A stretch of 64,000 nucleotides of DNA from NCBI GenBank assembly GCA_963662665.2, contig CAXXJS010000049.1:28373-92372 (forward strand), in the 5' to 3' direction. Positions 25,955 through 33,539 of the stretch are shown here, one piece after another. The position numbers were made by a program, and so were the translations under genes. The notes below the pieces were generated by a model. It was not told the origin of the DNA. It searched no databases and saw nothing but the letters and a program-made list of their open reading frames with translations. Each line of letters opens with the position of its first letter. Position 1 is the stretch's first letter. This DNA is from Candidatus Latescibacterota bacterium. Its GTDB lineage: Bacteria > Latescibacterota > UBA2968 > GCA-2709665.

Positions 25955-26027
25955 AGTGTTCTGTCCCGGAAATAGATTGCCGGAATTCGGCAGATAAATG
26001 GTAACATATTTCCATCGAAGGGACACT
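25955..26027. mobile_element. internally deleted copy of the 14905 MITE
   Basis: Identical 20-nt left end AGTGTTCTGTCCCGGAAATA, similar TTGCC.GAATTCGGC, then AATGGTAA..TATTT...GGACACT right end. Confidence 0.6.
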
Positions 26028-26045
26028 GAAGAAGGGGTGGGTTGT

Positions 26046-27077
26046 ATGTTGCTGTTACAGGAGCGGGAAGCAGCGATTCTGAATATTCTCATCGGTACGC
26101 ACGTCAATACCGGGGGCCCCGTTGGATCGAGGGCAATCGCCAGGTCCGGGCTGGGTCTCAGTTCCGCCACCGTGCGCAACTCTATGGCCGACCTGGAGGA
26201 GAAGGGCCTGCTCACCCATCCGCATACGTCGGCCGGTCGCGTTCCCACGGATAAAGGATACCGCTATTACGTCGACAGAGTGATGCCCAGGCAGACTCTG
26301 GAGGAAGAGGAACGCGAGCAGATCCGCGAGCGGGTGCGGGCATACGTCCGTGAGGGCGATATCGAAGCATTGCTCGAGCAGATGTCGAGAATGATCGCCG
26401 ATCTCTCGATGAATCTCGGAATGGTTCTATCGCCGAGGTTCGAGCGGGGGGTCTTCGACCGCCTGGAAATGGTCCATCTGTCCGAGGGAAGGCTCCTGCT
26501 GGTGCTTGCAATCAAATCGGGGCTGGTGAAGACGATGGTAATGGAGGTGGACTCCGCCATTGCCCCCGGCGAACTGGATGATACGTCGCGGGCGGTAAAC
26601 GAACGCCTTTCCGGTCTCAGCGTGGCGGAAATCAGAGATTCGGTTGCCGAACGGCTCCGTGAGGTCTCAAGCGGGTCTCCCAGACTCCTGCGCGTGCTGT
26701 GTGACAGCGCGCCAAGCCTCTTTCGCTTCCAAAGCGGTATGGATCTGCACTTCGGCGGGGCGGGCAATTTCATCATGCAGCCTGAATTCAACCGCAAGAA
26801 AAACGACCTGGCGGCCCTGATGGAATTGCTTGAAGCCCGGGAACCGATGATTACGATTCTGGACGAAAGAACCGAAAAAGACGGCATTTCCGTCACGATC
26901 GGCACCGAAAACGGACCGTCGCAACTCCGTGGCTGCAGCGTGCTTACTTCGAGATATCGGGTTGGCGCCATCTCGGGAGTTATCGGGCTGATCGGGCCCA
27001 CTCGCATCCCGTACGCGAGGCTCATACCTCTCACCCGGTATATGGCGGCACTGGCCGAGGAAATGTTGGATCAATAG
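26046..27077 (+). CDS. hrcA: heat-inducible transcriptional repressor
   Basis: PVGSRAI, SSATVRNSMADLEEKG..HPHTSAGRVPTDKGYRYYVD, IGLIGPTRI.Y. Confidence 0.96.
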   Translation: MLLLQEREAAILNILIGTHVNTGGPVGSRAIARSGLGLSSATVRNSMADLEEKGLLTHPHTSAGRVPTDKGYRYYVDRVMPRQTLEEEEREQIRERVRAYVREGDIEALLEQMSRMIADLSMNLGMVLSPRFERGVFDRLEMVHLSEGRLLLVLAIKSGLVKTMVMEVDSAIAPGELDDTSRAVNERLSGLSVAEIRDSVAERLREVSSGSPRLLRVLCDSAPSLFRFQSGMDLHFGGAGNFIMQPEFNRKKNDLAALMELLEAREPMITILDERTEKDGISVTIGTENGPSQLRGCSVLTSRYRVGAISGVIGLIGPTRIPYARLIPLTRYMAALAEEMLDQ

Positions 27078-27098
27078 CAGGAGGTTACACGGGCGCAT

Positions 27099-27692
27099 AT
27101 GGCGAAATCTAACGAAGTCAACGACGAAGAAACACAGGAGGAGACCGCCGAAGCGGAAGCTCCCGCGGAAGTGGAAACGCCGGATCCGCTGGCGGAAGCC
27201 CTCCGGGAGTCGGAAGAGCACCGGGATCGGTGGCTTCGGCTGGCAGCCGAATTCGACAACTACAAGAAACGGAGGTCGAGGGAATTCGATGCCCTGGTGC
27301 AATCGGCCAGCGAGAACCTGATACGAGAATTGCTGCCTGTTCTCGATTCGGTCGCACGCGCGTTGGACCATCGCGCCGACGGCGAGGACGATTCAGAGGG
27401 GTACAAACAGGGCGTCGCCATGATAATGGAACAATTCCCGAAAGTCCTCGAGCGTCGAGGGCTTTCGGAGATCGAGGCCGCGGGCCGACCGTTCGACCCC
27501 AACTTTCACGAAGCGCTGATGCAGATGTCTTCAGATCAGCACGCCGAGGGGCTGGTAATGGCCGTCGTGGAACGGGGGTACCGTATGGGCGATAGAGTCA
27601 TACGCCCGGCAAAGGTTGTCGTGAGCGGAGGGAGCGCGGAAGAGGAGCCCGCAAGCGAAGAAGAAGGCGAGGAAGAAAGTGAAGCGCGGTAA
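27099..27692 (+). CDS. grpE: nucleotide exchange factor GrpE
   Basis: RLAAEFDNYKKR, LLPVLD, FDPNFHEA, GYRMGDRVIRPAKVVV. Confidence 0.96.
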   Translation: MAKSNEVNDEETQEETAEAEAPAEVETPDPLAEALRESEEHRDRWLRLAAEFDNYKKRRSREFDALVQSASENLIRELLPVLDSVARALDHRADGEDDSEGYKQGVAMIMEQFPKVLERRGLSEIEAAGRPFDPNFHEALMQMSSDQHAEGLVMAVVERGYRMGDRVIRPAKVVVSGGSAEEEPASEEEGEEESEAR

Positions 27693-27749
27693 CTCTGAGC
27701 AGGGCCGGAAATCGGCTCTGTTGTTTGTTTTGCCCGACAGGAACGGATA

Positions 27750-28907
27750 ATGTCCAAACGCGACTACTACGAGGTCCTCGGTCTGCAACGCGAAGCAACC
27801 GAAGGCGAAATTAAGAAAGCCTATCGCAAACAGGCGATGCAATATCATCCCGACCGTAACGCGGGCGATGAAGAGGCCGCGGCCAGATTCAAGGAGGCCG
27901 CCGAAGCATATGAGGTCCTGGGCGATACCCAGAAACGTCGCGTGTACGACCAGTACGGTCATGCGGGTCTGGGCGGGCCGTTCCAGGGCGGGGGATTTCA
28001 ATGGTCCGATTTCACCCATGCAACCGATTTCGAGGACATTTTCTCCAATCTCGACGACGTGTTCGGCGGCGGTATTCTGGGCGATCTGTTCGGCCGACGC
28101 GGCGGCCGTCGCGGCCCCCAGCGTGGGGAGGACCTCCGCATTCCGCTCCGGTTGACCCTGGAAGAGATCGCGGCCGGCGCACAAAAGAAGATCCGATTTG
28201 CGCGGATGGAAAAGTGCGGCACATGCGACGGGAGCGGCGCCCGTTCCGGCGCTGCCGCCAGGACCTGCAGCGTCTGCAACGGGATGGGGCAGGTGCGCCA
28301 GGCGACCAGGTCGATGTTCGGCCAGTTCGTGAACGTAACCACGTGCCCCCAGTGCAACGGCGAGGGCAAGGTGATCGGCGACCGCTGCTCCGACTGCGGC
28401 GGCGAGGGCAGGGCGAAAAAGACCGTAAGTCTGGCAGTCAACGTCCCGGCGGGTGTGACCGACGGCAACTACATCCCGTTGCGGGGGCAGGGCAGCGTTG
28501 GACCCCGTGATGGCGCCGCCGGGGATTGCATGGTGCTGATCGAAGAGGAGGAGCACGAGTACTTCGAGCGGCACGGCAACGACATTCTCTATGAATTGCC
28601 CATCAGCTTCAGCCAGGCGGCGCTGGGCGCCGACGTGACGGTTCCCACGTTGAACAGCAAGGCGGAAATGAAGATTCCGGCCGGAACGCAGTCCGGACAG
28701 GTTTTTCGCCTGCGGGGCAAGGGTATACCGGAACTGAACGGGTACCGTACCGGCGACCAGCTCGTTCGCGTGATGGTCTGGACGCCAGCCCGTCTCAACG
28801 AGGATGAGAAGACGCTGTTCAGGCAACTCGCCGAACTGGAGAATATCCAGCCACCGGAAGGTGGAAAAGGCTTATTCGAACGTATGAAAGAGGCGTTCGG
28901 CGGTTAG
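27750..28907 (+). CDS. dnaJ: molecular chaperone DnaJ
   Basis: J domain with HPD, G/F region, four CxxCxGxG motifs, IPAGTQSG. Confidence 0.97.
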   Translation: MSKRDYYEVLGLQREATEGEIKKAYRKQAMQYHPDRNAGDEEAAARFKEAAEAYEVLGDTQKRRVYDQYGHAGLGGPFQGGGFQWSDFTHATDFEDIFSNLDDVFGGGILGDLFGRRGGRRGPQRGEDLRIPLRLTLEEIAAGAQKKIRFARMEKCGTCDGSGARSGAAARTCSVCNGMGQVRQATRSMFGQFVNVTTCPQCNGEGKVIGDRCSDCGGEGRAKKTVSLAVNVPAGVTDGNYIPLRGQGSVGPRDGAAGDCMVLIEEEEHEYFERHGNDILYELPISFSQAALGADVTVPTLNSKAEMKIPAGTQSGQVFRLRGKGIPELNGYRTGDQLVRVMVWTPARLNEDEKTLFRQLAELENIQPPEGGKGLFERMKEAFGG

Positions 28908-29004: not shown

Positions 29005-30447
29005 TTACGTTTTCCTCAGCCTGCGGAAAAGCGGTTGACTCTTCCTGATCTCCGATTTCGAAAAACTGGTTTCGATATGATCGGCGGTACACGGAAGAAA
29101 GGGTCTCAGGACCCGCGAAATGGCGCGAATCGAACCGACCCAGGCCGAGAGATTTTTCCGGAGCTTCCCGGCCTTTCCCTGTTTCAGAAATTCCCACGGA
29201 CGTTCCGCGTCGATTTCGCGGTTCAGACCGCCAACGCGCCGCCAGATGGCCCTCAGGCCGCCGGCAAAGTCGAATTCGTCTAGCGCGTGCGTGACGTCCT
29301 GTGGAACGCGGGCATCGGGCGTTTCCGCCCGACCGTAACCGCACCCTTCGCATAGGGCTTCGAGCCGGCGCACCAGGTTGCCCAGACCGTTCGCAAGGTC
29401 CGAGTTGTACACTTCCCGCAGCCTGGCTTCGGACACATCGCCGTCCTCTCCCGAACGGACTGCGCGGAGCAGGTAGTACCGGAGGGCGTCAGCGCCGTAT
29501 CGCCGGATCAGGGGGAATGGGTCCACGGCGTTGTCCAGCGACTTTCCGATCTTGCGGCCTTCCACGGTCAGATGGCCGTGGACGAAGATGGTTCGGGGAA
29601 GCGGCAGGCCGGCGGAGAGCAGCAGGGCGGGCCAGTAAACCGCGTGAAACTTGAGGATATCTTTGCCGATCACGTGGACCCGGTTGGGGCAGTTGCGCCA
29701 AAACCGATCGAATTTTTCGACCCCCGAACCATAGCCCAGACCGGTGAGGTAGTTGGTCAGGGCGTCGAACCAGACGTACATGACCTGCGTCGGGTGTCCA
29801 GGCACGGGCACGCCCCAGCCTCCGGAACGCTCCCGATTGCGGGAAATGCTGAAGTCACGCAGGCCCTGCCTGATGAATCCCAGCGCTTCGTTTCGGCGTG
29901 TTTCCGGGAGAATGCGAAGCTCTCCGGACGCGATCAGGCCCTCGAGCGCCTTCTGATAGGCGGATAGGCGGAAGAAATAGTTGGTTTCTTCCACGGACTC
30001 GGGTTCGACGGCGTGAACAGGGCATCGACCGTCCGAAAGGTCCCGCTTCAGGTAGAAGTCCTCGCATCCCGCGCAATACAGACCGCGGTACTGCCGGAGG
30101 TAGATATCCTCCTGCCGGCAGTCGGTCCAGAATCCGGATGCGCCGCGGAAGTGGACGTTGGAGGAGGAGCGGATGAAAGCGTCGGAAGAGACGTTGAGGG
30201 CTTCGACCAGGTTTCGGAAGACCGCGGCATTCCGATCGCAGAACTGATCGGGCGCAAGGCCCTGACGGGCGGCGGCCTGCACGTTTTTGAACGCATTTTC
30301 GTCGGTTCCGGTGAGGAAAAACGTCTCGTCGCCCAGGAGCCGCCGCCACCGTGCAATCGCGTCGGCCTGTACGAGTTCCAGCGCGAAACCCACGTGGGGG
30401 CGGGCATTGACGTAGGGGATGGACGTAGATACGTAGAACGTATTCAT
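29005..30447 (-). CDS. metG: methionine--tRNA ligase, short monomeric form with atypical HVGF/KIGKS motifs
   Basis: FYVSTSIPYVNARPHVGF, LTGTDE, YCAGCEDF...CPVH knuckle, YFFRLS, DFSISR, YVWFDAL.NY, IGKDILKFH...WPA, N.DLANGLGNL; no C-terminal tRNA-binding domain. Confidence 0.92.
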   Translation of the reverse strand: MNTFYVSTSIPYVNARPHVGFALELVQADAIARWRRLLGDETFFLTGTDENAFKNVQAAARQGLAPDQFCDRNAAVFRNLVEALNVSSDAFIRSSSNVHFRGASGFWTDCRQEDIYLRQYRGLYCAGCEDFYLKRDLSDGRCPVHAVEPESVEETNYFFRLSAYQKALEGLIASGELRILPETRRNEALGFIRQGLRDFSISRNRERSGGWGVPVPGHPTQVMYVWFDALTNYLTGLGYGSGVEKFDRFWRNCPNRVHVIGKDILKFHAVYWPALLLSAGLPLPRTIFVHGHLTVEGRKIGKSLDNAVDPFPLIRRYGADALRYYLLRAVRSGEDGDVSEARLREVYNSDLANGLGNLVRRLEALCEGCGYGRAETPDARVPQDVTHALDEFDFAGGLRAIWRRVGGLNREIDAERPWEFLKQGKAGKLRKNLSAWVGSIRAISRVLRPFLPCTADHIETSFSKSEIRKSQPLFRRLRKT

Positions 30448-30464
30448 CAGGAGGCCCTTTCCAT

Positions 30465-30502
30465 AAAAAAAACCCCACCGCCGATCCGTCGGCGGTGGGG
30501 TT
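30465..30502 (-). terminator. attenuator terminator in the metG leader
   Basis: Minus strand AACCCCACCGCCGA-CGGA-TCGGCGGTGGGGTT (14-bp stem) running into a U8 tract, 17 nt before the metG ATG. Confidence 0.9.
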
Positions 30503-30530
30503 GTCGATTCAGGTACACGTACGATTCAGT

Positions 30531-30689
30531 TCATTTCATGGGATGGTCCGCCGCGGGATGTCCGAATGAGATAGAGGACATCATGCACATCGAAATCACG
30601 GCGACACGGGTCGATGCATTGCCATGTGGAACGGCTGAGGATTGTACTGATAAACGCGAAACGTAGACCGAAATCTGAACCGATTTCAT
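30531..30689 (-). CDS. putative Met-rich leader peptide of metG (52 aa)
   Basis: GGGAGAG RBS, then MKSVQISVYVSRLSVQSSAVPHGNASTRVAVISMCMMSSISFGHPAADHPMK*; ATG TGC ATG ATG at 30590-30579; stop 28 nt before the terminator. Confidence 0.7.
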   Translation of the reverse strand: MKSVQISVYVSRLSVQSSAVPHGNASTRVAVISMCMMSSISFGHPAADHPMK

Positions 30690-30716
30690 CTTACTCTCCC
30701 CAATTGTGTGGGCGTA

Positions 30717-30745
30717 AAGATAGACGGCCAGCCATGAATTGTCAA
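30717..30745 (-). promoter_or_regulatory. sigma70-type promoter of the metG leader
   Basis: Minus strand TTGACA-N17-TATCTT. Confidence 0.7.
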
Positions 30746-30753
30746 GTTTCACG

Positions 30754-31090: not shown

Positions 31091-32140
31091 GTGCTTTACT
31101 GGTTGGGAGAGCGTTTCTCGGACGTTTACGGGCCCCTTCGGCTGTTAACGTCCTATCTGTTTCTGGCCGTTCTGGGCACGGCGCTGGCCGGTTTATTCAC
31201 CTGGCGGCTGCTTCCCGGATTGTGGATGCGGCTGCCCAAAGACCGTGGCCGCGCGTATGCCGTCGATAACGAGCAGAGCCACGGCAAGCCCGTGGGTGCC
31301 GGCGTTATTTTCATCCCCATCTACCTGATCGTGTGTTTTCTGATCCTCCCGCCGGGTTCCCAGTACTGGCAGATTCTGGGCTGTCTGTTTCTCGCGATGC
31401 TGGCCGGGTTCCTTGACGATCGAAGTCCTGGCGGATGGGGCGAGTACCGCGTGGGAGCCATCGACCTGGGCATTTCCCTGCTGGGCGCAATGGTTATTTG
31501 CCAGTTGGAGTCCGTCGAGCTCTGGCTTCCGCTGATGAAGACGCCGGTACTGGTCCAACCGTGGATTTTCGTGCCCGGGGCCGCGTTATTGATCTGGGTT
31601 TCAATCAATGCCACCAACTGTACGGATGGCGTGGACGGGCTGTCGGGCAGCCTGAGTGTGCTCGCCTTCATCTATCTGGGCGTCATTCTATACGGGATTG
31701 TAGGGCACACGGACATTGCCCGGTATCTTCTTGTGCCGCACTATCCGGACGGCGCGGTCTGGGCCCTGTTCGCATTTGTCATGGCCGGGTGTCTGGCCGG
31801 TTATCTCTGGTATAACGCCTATCCCAGCGCAGTGCTGATGGGAGACGCGGGATCCCGGCCGATGGGCTTCCTGCTCGGGATACTGGTTCTGGCGTGCGGC
31901 AATCCGTTTCTGATCGTCGTGGTCGCAAGCGTGGTGCTGGTGAATGGGGCCACGGGACTGCTGAAAGTGGCGTTGCTGCGGTTTCTGAAGATCGGGATAT
32001 TCGAGACGGTTCGATATCCGCTGCACGATCATTTTCGGCACAAAAACGGATGGTCGAATACGCACGTACTCGTGCGGTTTATTCTGCTCCAGGCGTTTGT
32101 GACGCCGATTCTGCTGGTTTTGCTGGTTAAGATCCGCTGA
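31091..32140 (+). CDS. mraY: phospho-N-acetylmuramoyl-pentapeptide transferase (MraY-like), orphan
   Basis: MLYWL start, GKPVGAG, GFLDD, NATNCTDGVDGL, LWYNAYP..VLMGDAGS, PLHDHF...GWS. Confidence 0.75.
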   Translation: MLYWLGERFSDVYGPLRLLTSYLFLAVLGTALAGLFTWRLLPGLWMRLPKDRGRAYAVDNEQSHGKPVGAGVIFIPIYLIVCFLILPPGSQYWQILGCLFLAMLAGFLDDRSPGGWGEYRVGAIDLGISLLGAMVICQLESVELWLPLMKTPVLVQPWIFVPGAALLIWVSINATNCTDGVDGLSGSLSVLAFIYLGVILYGIVGHTDIARYLLVPHYPDGAVWALFAFVMAGCLAGYLWYNAYPSAVLMGDAGSRPMGFLLGILVLACGNPFLIVVVASVVLVNGATGLLKVALLRFLKIGIFETVRYPLHDHFRHKNGWSNTHVLVRFILLQAFVTPILLVLLVKIR

Positions 32141-32180: not shown

Positions 32181-33539
32181 ATGGACGCAAAAGAAACGCT
32201 AAAGCGGAAAATCTGTGAGGCCATCGACCGCCGGCGCGGACAGATCGAGCGGATCGGGGACCACATTATGGCCCATCCGGAGACTGGGTTCAAGGAATTC
32301 GAAACGTCCAGGCTGGCGGCGAATACCATGGAAGAGTTCGGGATTTCGCCGGAAACCGGGCTGGGGATTACCGGCGTGAAGGGCATTTTACGGGGTGCGA
32401 AACCGGGCCCGACCGTGGCCCTGATCGGCGAGCTGGATTCGCTTGTAGTGCCGGATCATCCCATGGCCGATCCCGAAACCGGCGCCGCACACGCCTGTGG
32501 ACACAACGCGCAGATGGCCGGGCTGCTGGGCGCGATGATGGGGATGGTGGACACCGGCGCGGCTGAGTCCATGGCCGGCAACGTCGTGTTTTTCGCGGTG
32601 CCCGCGGAAGAGTATATCGAGGTCGAGTACCGGATGGGACTGGTCAGGGAAGGAAAGCTGGAGTTCCTGGGCGGCAAACCCGAACTCGTCCGCCTCGGGC
32701 ATTTCGACGATATCGACGTGGCGGCCATGATCCACACGCACAGCGACCCTGGCATGAAGAAGGCGGCGACTGCCAAGTCGTGCAACGGATGTATGGTGAA
32801 GATGATCCGGTTCGTTGGCCGTGCCGCGCACGCCGGAGGCGCGCCTCACAGGGGAATCAACGCGTTGAACGCCGCCCAGATCGCATTAATGGCAATTCAT
32901 GCGCAGCGTGAGACGTTTCGGGATAACGATTCGATCCGGGTACATCCGATCATCACCAGGGGCGGCGACATCGTGAATGTGGTGCCGGCGGAGGTAACGA
33001 TGGAGACCTACGTCCGGGGGAAGACGAACGAAGCGATGCTGGACGCCAACGAGAAGGTCGACCGGGCGATCCGCGCGGGGGCCATGGCGGTCGGCGCTCG
33101 GGTGGAGATCGAGACGCTGCCGGGGTACATGCCCGTCAGGACCGATCCTGCGTTGAGCGAAGTGTTCGAATCGAATTCGAGAGCACTATTCGGCGACGAC
33201 GAGGTCTGTGAGGTCTCGCACCGGTCGGGATCCACGGATATGGGGGATCTGTCCCACATCATGCCGGCGATCCATCCGTACATGTCCGGAGCGGACGGCG
33301 TGGGTCACAGCGCGGACTGGCATATTTCGGACAAGGAGATGGGGTATATCGCGCCCGCGAAATCACTGGCGCTTCTGGCCGTGGACCTTCTGCACGGCGC
33401 CGGCGAGGAGGCGACGGGCGTGCTCCGGGACTTCGAGCCGGCGATGACGAAGGAAGAGTACCTGACGTTCCAGCGTGCGCTGTTCAAGACGGAGGTATTC
33501 GACGGGGCAGGCGGCGGGAAAGACGGGAATACGAACTGA
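32181..33539 (+). CDS. M20D family amidohydrolase
   Basis: HPETGFKEF, GELDSL, AHACGHNAQ, PAEE, AHAGGAPH.GINAL, GSTDMGDLSH. Confidence 0.92.
   Translation: MDAKETLKRKICEAIDRRRGQIERIGDHIMAHPETGFKEFETSRLAANTMEEFGISPETGLGITGVKGILRGAKPGPTVALIGELDSLVVPDHPMADPETGAAHACGHNAQMAGLLGAMMGMVDTGAAESMAGNVVFFAVPAEEYIEVEYRMGLVREGKLEFLGGKPELVRLGHFDDIDVAAMIHTHSDPGMKKAATAKSCNGCMVKMIRFVGRAAHAGGAPHRGINALNAAQIALMAIHAQRETFRDNDSIRVHPIITRGGDIVNVVPAEVTMETYVRGKTNEAMLDANEKVDRAIRAGAMAVGARVEIETLPGYMPVRTDPALSEVFESNSRALFGDDEVCEVSHRSGSTDMGDLSHIMPAIHPYMSGADGVGHSADWHISDKEMGYIAPAKSLALLAVDLLHGAGEEATGVLRDFEPAMTKEEYLTFQRALFKTEVFDGAGGGKDGNTN

Follow-up and report, generated by a model that had tools for sequence, protein, structure and literature searches.

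What controls the expression of a second methionyl-tRNA synthetase (MetRS) gene when a short open reading frame (ORF) with clustered methionine codons stands in front of it? The question is raised by the window analysed here, a stretch of 64,000 nucleotides (nt) on contig CAXXJS010000049.1 of Candidatus Latescibacterota bacterium, an organism known solely from metagenome bins, in which such an ORF occupies the minus strand upstream of a gene for a 480-amino-acid (aa) MetRS. An initial annotation, made from the letters of the window alone, had described the region as a methionine-sensing attenuator of metG. Our analysis leads us to regard the element as probably a Met-codon leader-peptide, that is ribosome-mediated, transcription attenuator of this auxiliary MetRS.

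The leader and the gene behind it are made up of the following parts, all of them read on the minus strand:

30745-30740 and 30722-30717, minus strand: predicted sigma-70-type promoter, TTGACA, a 17-nt spacer and TATCTT, with 10 of 12 matches.
30701-30694, minus strand: Shine-Dalgarno (SD) sequence of the leader ORF, GGGGAGAG, with the ATG 4 nt downstream.
30689 (ATG) to 30533-30531 (TGA), minus strand: leader ORF of 52 codons plus TGA, peptide MKSVQISVYVSRLSVQSSAVPHGNASTRVAVISMCMMSSISFGHPAADHPMK.
30602-30597, minus strand: segment 1, upstream half, GCCGUG, which can pair with CGCGGC of segment 2 (RNAduplex).
30590-30579, minus strand: Met cluster ATG-TGC-ATG-ATG, codons 34-37, the putative regulatory codons.
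30582-30576, minus strand: segment 1, downstream half, GAUGUCC, which overlaps Met36-Met37 and has its partner GGACAUC at 30563-30557.
30563-30547, minus strand: segment 2, GGACAUC followed by the antiterminator strand CCGCGGCGGA (30556-30547).
30502 to 30471, minus strand: predicted intrinsic terminator hairpin (segments 3 and 4), 14 bp, 10 of them G-C, loop ACGG.
30472-30465, minus strand: U8 tract, the initial two U of which pair with AA of the terminator stem.
30462-30455, minus strand: SD sequence of the MetRS gene, GGAAAGGG, read from the sequence.
29005 to 30447, minus strand: auxiliary methionine–tRNA ligase, 480 aa, with the motifs HVGF and KIGKS and without the C-terminal tRNA-binding domain.

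Promoter, ribosome-binding site and 52-codon upstream ORF (uORF) all lie where the initial annotation had placed them, and the internal Met codons of the leader ORF are exactly codons 34, 36, 37 and 51. The same holds for the 14-bp terminator, with a hairpin energy of −28.6 kcal/mol, and its U8 tract, which ends 17 nt before the metG ATG at 30447. Orthologous loci have GGAAAGGA-like boxes before their MetRS genes. Apart from the leader's own TTGACA-17-TATCTT, no second promoter-like site was found between 29000 and 32000. A GTG at 30752, which would open a 73-aa ORF, was rejected as the leader start because it lies upstream of the −35 box.

Neither a T-box nor an S-adenosylmethionine (SAM) riboswitch, which the initial annotation had named as evidence that would refute it, turned up here. 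At the gathering score, Rfam recognised only two tRNAs in the whole window and no T-box, SAM or leader family; between 30250 and 31100, down to E=10, it returned terminator look-alikes only, with no T-box (RF00230) and no SAM family, and no family matched in 14 related leader loci. The arrangement is also rare within the genome itself (4.86 Mb, 1,179 terminator-like hairpins), where a scan for ORFs of 12-90 aa having at least three Met in seven residues and ending at most 70 nt before a terminator-like hairpin gave two matches, one of which is the window leader. The other, on contig C23, is spurious, as it runs antisense within a 359-aa ORF. Among the 123 terminator-like sites with an ORF of at least 200 aa within 90 nt, codon clusters were seen by eye only at trpS and at the auxiliary MetRS.

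The gene downstream, named metG in the initial annotation, does encode a MetRS, scoring 394.1 bits on the NCBIfam domain model TIGR00398 metG (cut-off 336.35), but it is not the housekeeping metG: the 480-aa protein is a second, auxiliary paralogue. A canonical MetRS of 634 aa, 41% identical to it, is encoded on another contig of the same genome, with HLGH and KMGKS motifs and a C-terminal tRNA-binding domain, and reaches 834 bits on the full-length model PRK12267 (cut-off 598), on which the 480-aa MetRS scores 463.6 bits and stays under the cut-off. Since the motif H[ILV]GF recurs in 20 of the 51 related genes from other phyla with a motif match, Patescibacteria loci included (80 loci were searched), we take the 480-aa MetRS to be an active enzyme. 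In this MetRS clade, the HIGH signature ends in Phe (HVGF or HIGF) instead of His, and in many of its genes KMSKS reads KIGKS or KISKS.

Orthologues of the 480-aa MetRS, 58-86% identical, are present in 20 of 168 Latescibacterota genomes: in 16 of 21 genomes of the window's family (its own genome excluded), in 2 of 3 and 1 of 76 genomes of two other families, and in none of the 31 of the sister family. We compared 18 terminator-bearing leaders, namely 14 type-1 leaders from the window's genus (alignment A1) and the diverged leaders L017, L111, L112 and L113. All 18 combine a uORF having an in-frame Met cluster, a terminator, and a stop-proximal segment that pairs with the terminator 5' arm. 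Type-1 leader DNA occurs as a single copy per genome in 14 of the 22 family genomes, always adjoining the auxiliary MetRS, and the single congener without that gene also lacks the leader DNA.

Within type 1, each of the expected parts has been kept. The −35 box and the TCTAT of the −10 box are retained in 14 of 14, the GG of the leader SD is invariant across alignment A1, the start codon is conserved, and the leader ORF has 52 codons, counted from the conserved ATG, in 13 of 14. The stop codon lies 31 nt from the conserved CCCACCG of the terminator arm in 13 of 14, and the terminator stem is invariant or nearly so. Met-rich uORFs were what the initial annotation expected of homologous leaders, and the comparison bears this out: ATG is found without exception at codons 34 and 36 of the 14 leaders and with one exception at codon 37, giving M-x-M-M in 13 leaders (SMCMM, SMYMM) and M-Y-M-P in L003. 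L017, from another genus of the window's family, and L111, L112 and L113, from two other families, barely align with type 1, and each has a promoter-like box, an SD sequence, a Met-cluster uORF (SSMGMPMSM in L017, SMGMH in L111, GMGMSM in L112, PMAMPRM in L113) and, after the cluster, a different terminator, GGCCCGCUGUC...GGCAGCGGGCC. All 18 leaders hold 2-4 clustered in-frame ATGs; taken together, their non-start ATG triplets number 60 in frame versus 22 and 5 in the other two frames. Terminator energies range from −22.7 to −28.6 kcal/mol in the 18 leaders. Because the terminator ends 15-27 nt before the MetRS ATG in the 11 loci that carry a type-1 leader alone, the gap leaves no room for another promoter.

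The pattern of change in the leader ORF tells what is being conserved. In 13 type-1 leaders (L010 left out), the fraction of nucleotides off the column majority in codons 2-33 is 0.23, 0.22 and 0.26 at codon positions 1, 2 and 3, which argues that the peptide is not under selection there; in L002 and L016 its N-termini are even unrelated in sequence. The Ala codons 46-47 are GCG GCG in 13 of 13 type-1 leaders, and in L010 a 1-nt deletion past the Met cluster has rewritten the tail of the peptide, with the stop three codons early, while the nucleotides are kept. Equal variability at the three codon positions, the invariant GCG GCG and the frameshift with kept nucleotides together point to a constraint on the RNA and not on the peptide; the leader would thus be held to its Met codons, its frame and its RNA, not to a protein product.

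Two loci deserve separate mention. In L016 (G011:C5:1245474-1246908) the leader is intact and the MetRS orthologue lies in two frames, residues 1-136 and 136-478, owing to either a frameshift or an assembly error. In the sister family, L018 (G037:C132:5013-6332) is a 51%-identical MetRS match that starts at query residue 36 and has one in-frame TGA; upstream of it lies coding sequence, not a leader.

The switch itself would consist of mutually exclusive pairings. As the initial annotation had it, the antiterminator AUCCCGCGGCGG (30559-30548) can form 10 of 12 pairs with the terminator arm CCGCCGACGGAU (30495-30484); the window duplex with the terminator 5' arm has an energy of −14.1 kcal/mol (RNAduplex), and 14 of 500 shuffles are as good. 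In all 18 leaders, the best duplex of the terminator 5' arm with the sequence past the Met codons reaches to within 9-17 nt of the stop codon. These duplexes start 10-40 nt past the last clustered Met codon, have energies of −13.1 to −22.1 kcal/mol, and in 10 of 18 leaders at least equal all but 25 or fewer of 500 shuffles. Positions 4-9 of the terminator arm are paired in 15-18 of the 18 leaders, positions 4-6 in every one. Between lineages, compensatory changes are seen at arm position 5 (G-C 14, A-U 3, G-U 1), position 7 (G-C 13, G-U 3, A-U 1) and position 9 (C-G 15, U-A 1, U-G 1). On alignment A1, 95.5% of 112 cells of the antiterminator helix are paired, versus 15-82% when the helix is slid.

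The competing 1:2 pairing called for a revision. The hairpin of GAUGUCC (30582-30576) and GGACAUC (30563-30557) is present in the minimum free energy (MFE) fold at the positions that the initial annotation gave, but it shares only 3 nt with the antiterminator strand and by itself would not exclude the antiterminator; the competitor would be an interrupted helix that adds GCCGUG/CGCGGC. On alignment A1, 85.6% of 181 cells of this two-part helix are paired, 33-48% when it is slid, and none of 500 shuffles reaches the value. The 1:2 helix is long in L017 (−29.0 kcal/mol) and L112 (−24.0 kcal/mol).

We infer translation of the uORF, ribosome stalling, kinetic competition of the pairings and the physiological signal, which would be the supply of charged elongator tRNA-Met. 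Transcription would start about 7 nt past the −10 box, and the leader would be translated as RNA polymerase moves on. With Met-tRNA plentiful, the ribosome would pass the three Met codons and segment 2 (CCGCGGCGG) and reach the stop codon; segment 2 would then stay under the ribosome or pair with segment 1 again, the 14-bp terminator would form, and transcription would end at the U8 tract, 17 nt upstream of the MetRS start. When Met-tRNA is scarce, through methionine starvation or a weakened housekeeping MetRS, a ribosome stalled at codons 34-37 would mask both halves of segment 1, leaving segment 2, 20 nt downstream, free to pair with the emerging 5' arm of the terminator and so allow read-through into the MetRS gene.

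Several observations weigh against this reading and temper our confidence in it. The genomes are related, so the leader counts are not independent, and L003 and L111 have just two clustered Met codons each. The compensatory changes in the terminator arm come from few lineages and from duplexes picked by energy, and are thus biased towards pairing. Within type 1 there is hardly any variation in the antiterminator, so that its covariation, which 130 of 500 shuffles attain, is not significant. Only in 3 of 18 leaders is the 1:2 pairing matched by no more than 25 of 500 shuffles, and the equilibrium folds do not show it excluding the antiterminator. The initial annotation had suggested folding of the alternative states as a check: equilibrium folding with ribosome masks, whether of the whole leader or local, did not discriminate the states and does not reproduce the switch. 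The antiterminator core of the window has a probability (P) of 0.87-1.00 in all four states, ribosome-at-stop included, that of L005, L009, L010 and L011 has P of about 0 in all states, and the terminator is the invariable outcome for the full-length leader (P at least 0.88). The proposed mechanism would therefore have to be kinetic, as in the classic cases. In addition, the CCGCGGCGG of segment 2 occupies the stretch 14-22 nt ahead of the stop codon, where the footprint of a terminating ribosome has its edge, and in L017 and L112 the segment 2 core is further upstream of the stop, so that termination would have to rely on 1:2 pairing. Methionine shortage should also lower fMet-tRNA and with it cut initiation on the leader.

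The same features can be read in other ways. If the leader were a sensor of translation speed, of its nascent peptide or of an antibiotic arrest, of the ermCL or catA86L type, with the ribosome stalling on S-M-x-M-M-S-S or on a drug and the MetRS acting as a drug-induced resistance gene, one would understand why type 1 keeps the peptide motif S-M-[CY]-M-M-[SA]-S, why the regulated gene is a second, horizontally related synthetase, and why a second uORF found in some relatives (described below) forms an SD-sequestering hairpin of the ermC type. Second synthetases of this sort often confer inhibitor resistance. Yet across lineages the Met cluster is the sole peptide feature in common, in flanks as different as MGMPMSM, MAMPRM, MRMRGIP and NMMMPV, and the clustered codon is cognate to the enzyme, like the WWW that precedes trpS in the same genome. 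We consider an arrest sensor quite unlikely. Binding of the leader RNA by a protein or ligand, be it autoregulation by MetRS or an unknown riboswitch, would make the uORF and its Met codons by-products of the pairing sequence. This would sit well with the strongest RNA-level conservation in segment 2 and the terminator, with the participation of AUG-containing stretches in the pairings, and with the second uORF of some relatives (the type-2 element), where a conserved AUG is base-paired to CAUG at the start of metG. It does not explain why the uORF keeps its SD, start codon, frame and stop position, why ATGs fall so preferentially in frame (60 versus 22 and 5), or why Met clusters recur where the surrounding RNA sequence differs; no Rfam family matches either, and we give this explanation very little credence.

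There remains the reading of the 52-codon ORF as a gene in its own right, coding for a small protein and equipped with a promoter and terminator of its own; expression of the MetRS would then depend on constitutive leak-through or on an internal promoter that escaped recognition, and a regulated switch would not exist. The full-length leader does always fold into a strong terminator (−22.7 to −28.6 kcal/mol), and the length and start of the ORF are well conserved, as they would be in such a gene. Against it stand the equal variation of codon positions 1-3 in codons 2-33, the unrelated N-termini of L002 and L016, the tolerated frameshift of L010, the mere 17 nt from the U tract to the MetRS ATG with no second promoter-like site found, and the constant co-occurrence of leader and MetRS gene. 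A small-protein gene seems to us highly improbable, and a Met-codon attenuator of the auxiliary MetRS remains the reading that we prefer.

The genome offers a parallel of its own. On contig C32 (32726-32943; L114:127-344), trpS is preceded by a promoter-like TTGACA box, a 25-codon leader MAARIDISGSWWWYDANRTGRLTAC with WWW, a terminator CGTCCCTGCCGG..CGGCGGGGAUUUUU and then the SD sequence GGAGGGAG; the gene (L114:345-1421) starts 20 nt after the terminator, scores 308.9 bits on TIGR00233 (cut-off 176.75) and is the sole match in the genome. A WWW leader and terminator before the only trpS argue that attenuation by cognate codons is used for synthetase genes in this organism. A T-box-like leader (RF00230; 70.8 bits, under the gathering score of 93, E 4.5e-15) occurs once in the genome, on contig C50 (93564-93851; L116:65-352), where it precedes a pheS of archaeal type (L116:454-2037; PRK04172 526.6 bits). 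No SAM-I riboswitch (RF00162) matched in the whole genome, which is 92% complete.

Around the auxiliary MetRS, the plus strand of the window carries neighbours at 25998-28907, 31091-32140 and 32181-33539. Three plus-strand ORFs converging on the MetRS gene look by eye like hrcA, grpE and dnaJ; a divergent ORF nearby is MraY-like (TIGR00445, 112.9 bits, below the cut-off of 192), and a neighbouring amidohydrolase scores 198.7 bits on TIGR01891.

Leader-peptide attenuation is textbook knowledge for Trp, His, Leu, Thr, Ile/Val and Phe: trp, his, leu, thr and ilv of E. coli are controlled in this way, and in pheST, with its pheM leader, the logic serves a synthetase. The element of the window shares with leaders of the pheST and trp type the order of promoter, short leader with cognate codons, mutually exclusive antiterminator and terminator hairpins, and gene. 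It differs from them in its codon, AUG, in the length of the leader (52 codons, with the cluster 15 codons before the stop), in the position of the antiterminator strand, which is upstream of the stop codon where theirs is downstream, and in its target, an auxiliary paralogue in an uncultured phylum. Sequence similarity to these leaders is nil: Leu_leader of Rfam matches at 13.4 bits on the opposite strand (gathering score 50). Judged by its sequence, then, it would be a familiar kind of switch in a new place, a conserved element with the anatomy and logic of the classic leader-peptide attenuators. Second synthetase copies are under T-box control in Bacillus subtilis (thrZ, tyrZ). There too, a spare synthetase is kept off by a leader terminator and induced when the cognate tRNA is poorly charged; those leaders bind uncharged tRNA directly, whereas the window has no T-box and its sensor would be the translating ribosome.

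The idea of a Met leader is less novel than the initial annotation, which knew of no characterised example, had supposed: Met leader peptides have been predicted for other genes, and none was found for metG. Attenuators were predicted for trpS and leuS of Streptomyces in a 2005 survey that reports no conserved RNA structures upstream of methionine operons (PMC1262725). In S. lividans TK24, metL, MSTTSDRTPATEATTTPGARCMCRRMCAF, ahead of metNIQ, is a proposed Met-containing leader peptide with the run C-M-C-R-R-M-C (PMC8079986). These Streptomyces leaders resemble that of the window in placing cognate codons before synthetase genes (trpS, leuS) and a Met leader at a methionine gene (metL); unlike it, metL precedes a transporter, is leaderless and, according to its authors, is without a typical intrinsic terminator (PMC8079986). 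Among the leaders described in the available parts of the two reports, there is no metG case (PMC1262725, PMC8079986). For Campylobacter jejuni, MetL and CJsORF19 (MMYQMR) are candidate leader peptides supported by ribosome profiling (Ribo-seq) (PMC11955535). As far as the available text of that article goes, both are short, Met-rich, translated uORFs proposed to regulate methionine genes, like the leader studied here; CJsORF19 is much shorter and stands before a D-methionine transport gene, the gene behind MetL is not named, neither is reported before a synthetase, and an analysis of terminator and antiterminator is not given (PMC11955535). Within the literature searched, which left most subscription journals and supplements outside, we found no leader-peptide attenuator of metG; methionine is represented in print by a few uncharacterised leader candidates, none of them before a synthetase.

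In seven orthologous loci, a second uORF directly precedes metG; the window has no such uORF, its terminator being immediately followed by the ribosome-binding site. Its positions are these:

L002:2920-3064, L003:2917-3061 and L016:2921-3065, minus strand: second uORF behind a type-1 terminator.
L111:1353-1506, plus strand, and L112:2917-3046, minus strand: second uORF behind the locus's own terminator.
L014:1362-1515, plus strand, and L015:2920-3073, minus strand: second uORF alone.

Its peptide has the conserved pattern S-x-x-G-G-[IVL]-x-x-M-[RC]-x-S, and its codons CAUG.GCA.GUCC pair with GGAC.UGC-CAUG, which is part of the metG SD and start codon; this pairing is found in the MFE fold of 6 of 7 loci and in the consensus fold as well. 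One in-frame AUG is kept in 7 of 7 and another in 3 of 7, and the uORF continues past the metG start in another frame to a stop 68-956 nt downstream. It looks like a case of translational attenuation or coupling. Translational attenuation is the mode of ermC and cat, and as there, codons of the uORF form the 5' arm of a hairpin that buries the downstream SD and start codon; unlike ermC and cat, the second uORF runs past the metG start in another frame, and dependence on a drug is not implied.

Similar leaders are met beyond the phylum. We scanned 450 nt upstream of 78 related MetRS loci and inspected 11 that were flagged or neighbouring; in 7 of the 11, a Met-cluster uORF is followed by a G+C hairpin within the 100-330 nt that precede the MetRS start, and a T run follows 6 of the 7 hairpins. 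The seventh, in L081 (Actinorhabdospora filicis, TRMMRP), is counted as being without one, its T run being at best weak. Five of these leaders are from Chloroflexota (L053, L059, L060, L067, L087), of which four share M-x-M-R-G-[IFL]-P-R, encoded by a GCGCGG..CCGCGC hairpin; L083, of Pelagibius sp., reads SNMMMPVTM. Of the remaining four inspected loci, one is masked by N and three are without a Met leader. The upstream scan alone flagged L056 (Rhizobium sp.), L066 and L075; among Patescibacteria-titled loci it flagged only L065, whose uORF overlaps the start of its gene. The antiterminator duplexes of the 7 out-of-phylum leaders have z from −2.99 to +0.76, below −1.5 in two (L083, L081) and below −2 only in L083. 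In 3 of 5 out-of-phylum genomes checked, a second MetRS gene exists besides the leader-bearing one; in the other two, Chloroflexota bins of unstated completeness, no MetRS gene but the leader-bearing one was found.

A quick maximum-likelihood tree of the MetRS sequences (78 rows, unrooted, with leader labels from the crude upstream scan) places the 12 Latescibacterota rows in one clade, with a support of 100 in the Shimodaira–Hasegawa-like approximate likelihood-ratio test (SH-aLRT). The adjoining clade of 18 rows (98) holds Chloroflexota, Thermomicrobiota, Actinorhabdospora, Rhizobium and Pelagibius; a support of 83 unites the two clades, and all 17 leader-bearing rows fall within the resulting group of 30. 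Left out of the tree were duplicates of G loci (L031-L033, L038, L043, L085), cut or partial genes (L040, L045, L047, L059, L060, L071, L088, L095, L105) and 8 of the 14 type-1 loci (L004, L006, L008, L009, L011-L013, L016). The distribution suggests horizontal transfer of the auxiliary MetRS gene. Elsewhere in the tree, MetRS rows from bins titled 'uncultured Gammaproteobacteria' or 'Pseudomonadales' (L039, L042, L046, L048, L050, L064, L077, L078, L091-L093, L098, L103, L104, L108, L109) sit inside Patescibacteria clades, some with starred support; these titles may be wrong or the contigs misbinned.

A bolder proposal, which we put forward tentatively and hold to be rather doubtful, is that leader and gene form a mobile 'sense-and-replace' module: a spare MetRS, whose clade also contains Chloroflexota enzymes and has those of the Patescibacteria type as its nearest kin, that would travel with its own sensor of tRNA-Met charging, would have spread between Latescibacterota, Chloroflexota, Alphaproteobacteria and Actinomycetota, and would be switched on by a natural inhibitor that poisons the housekeeping MetRS or by a lack of methionine. 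Some lineages would have gained a second tier, acting on translation, through a further uORF with a Met codon that pairs with the start codon of metG. If true, such a module would give a single step of translation an immunity or backup system that is inducible and complete in itself.

The interest of the element lies in its amino acid, in the spare synthetase as its target, in its spread over several phyla, and in the clean experimental material that it offers. A full terminator and antiterminator anatomy together with wide conservation recommends it for a new RNA-family model and as the subject of the first mechanistic work on a Met attenuator, which could also address how a sensor manages when one enzyme charges both initiator and elongator tRNA-Met. 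For the phylum, the leaders before trpS and the spare metG suggest regulation of synthetase genes by ribosome-mediated attenuation, beside one T-box-like leader at pheS. The element also flags a clade of duplicated MetRS genes, whose regulation suggests a role in backup or resistance.

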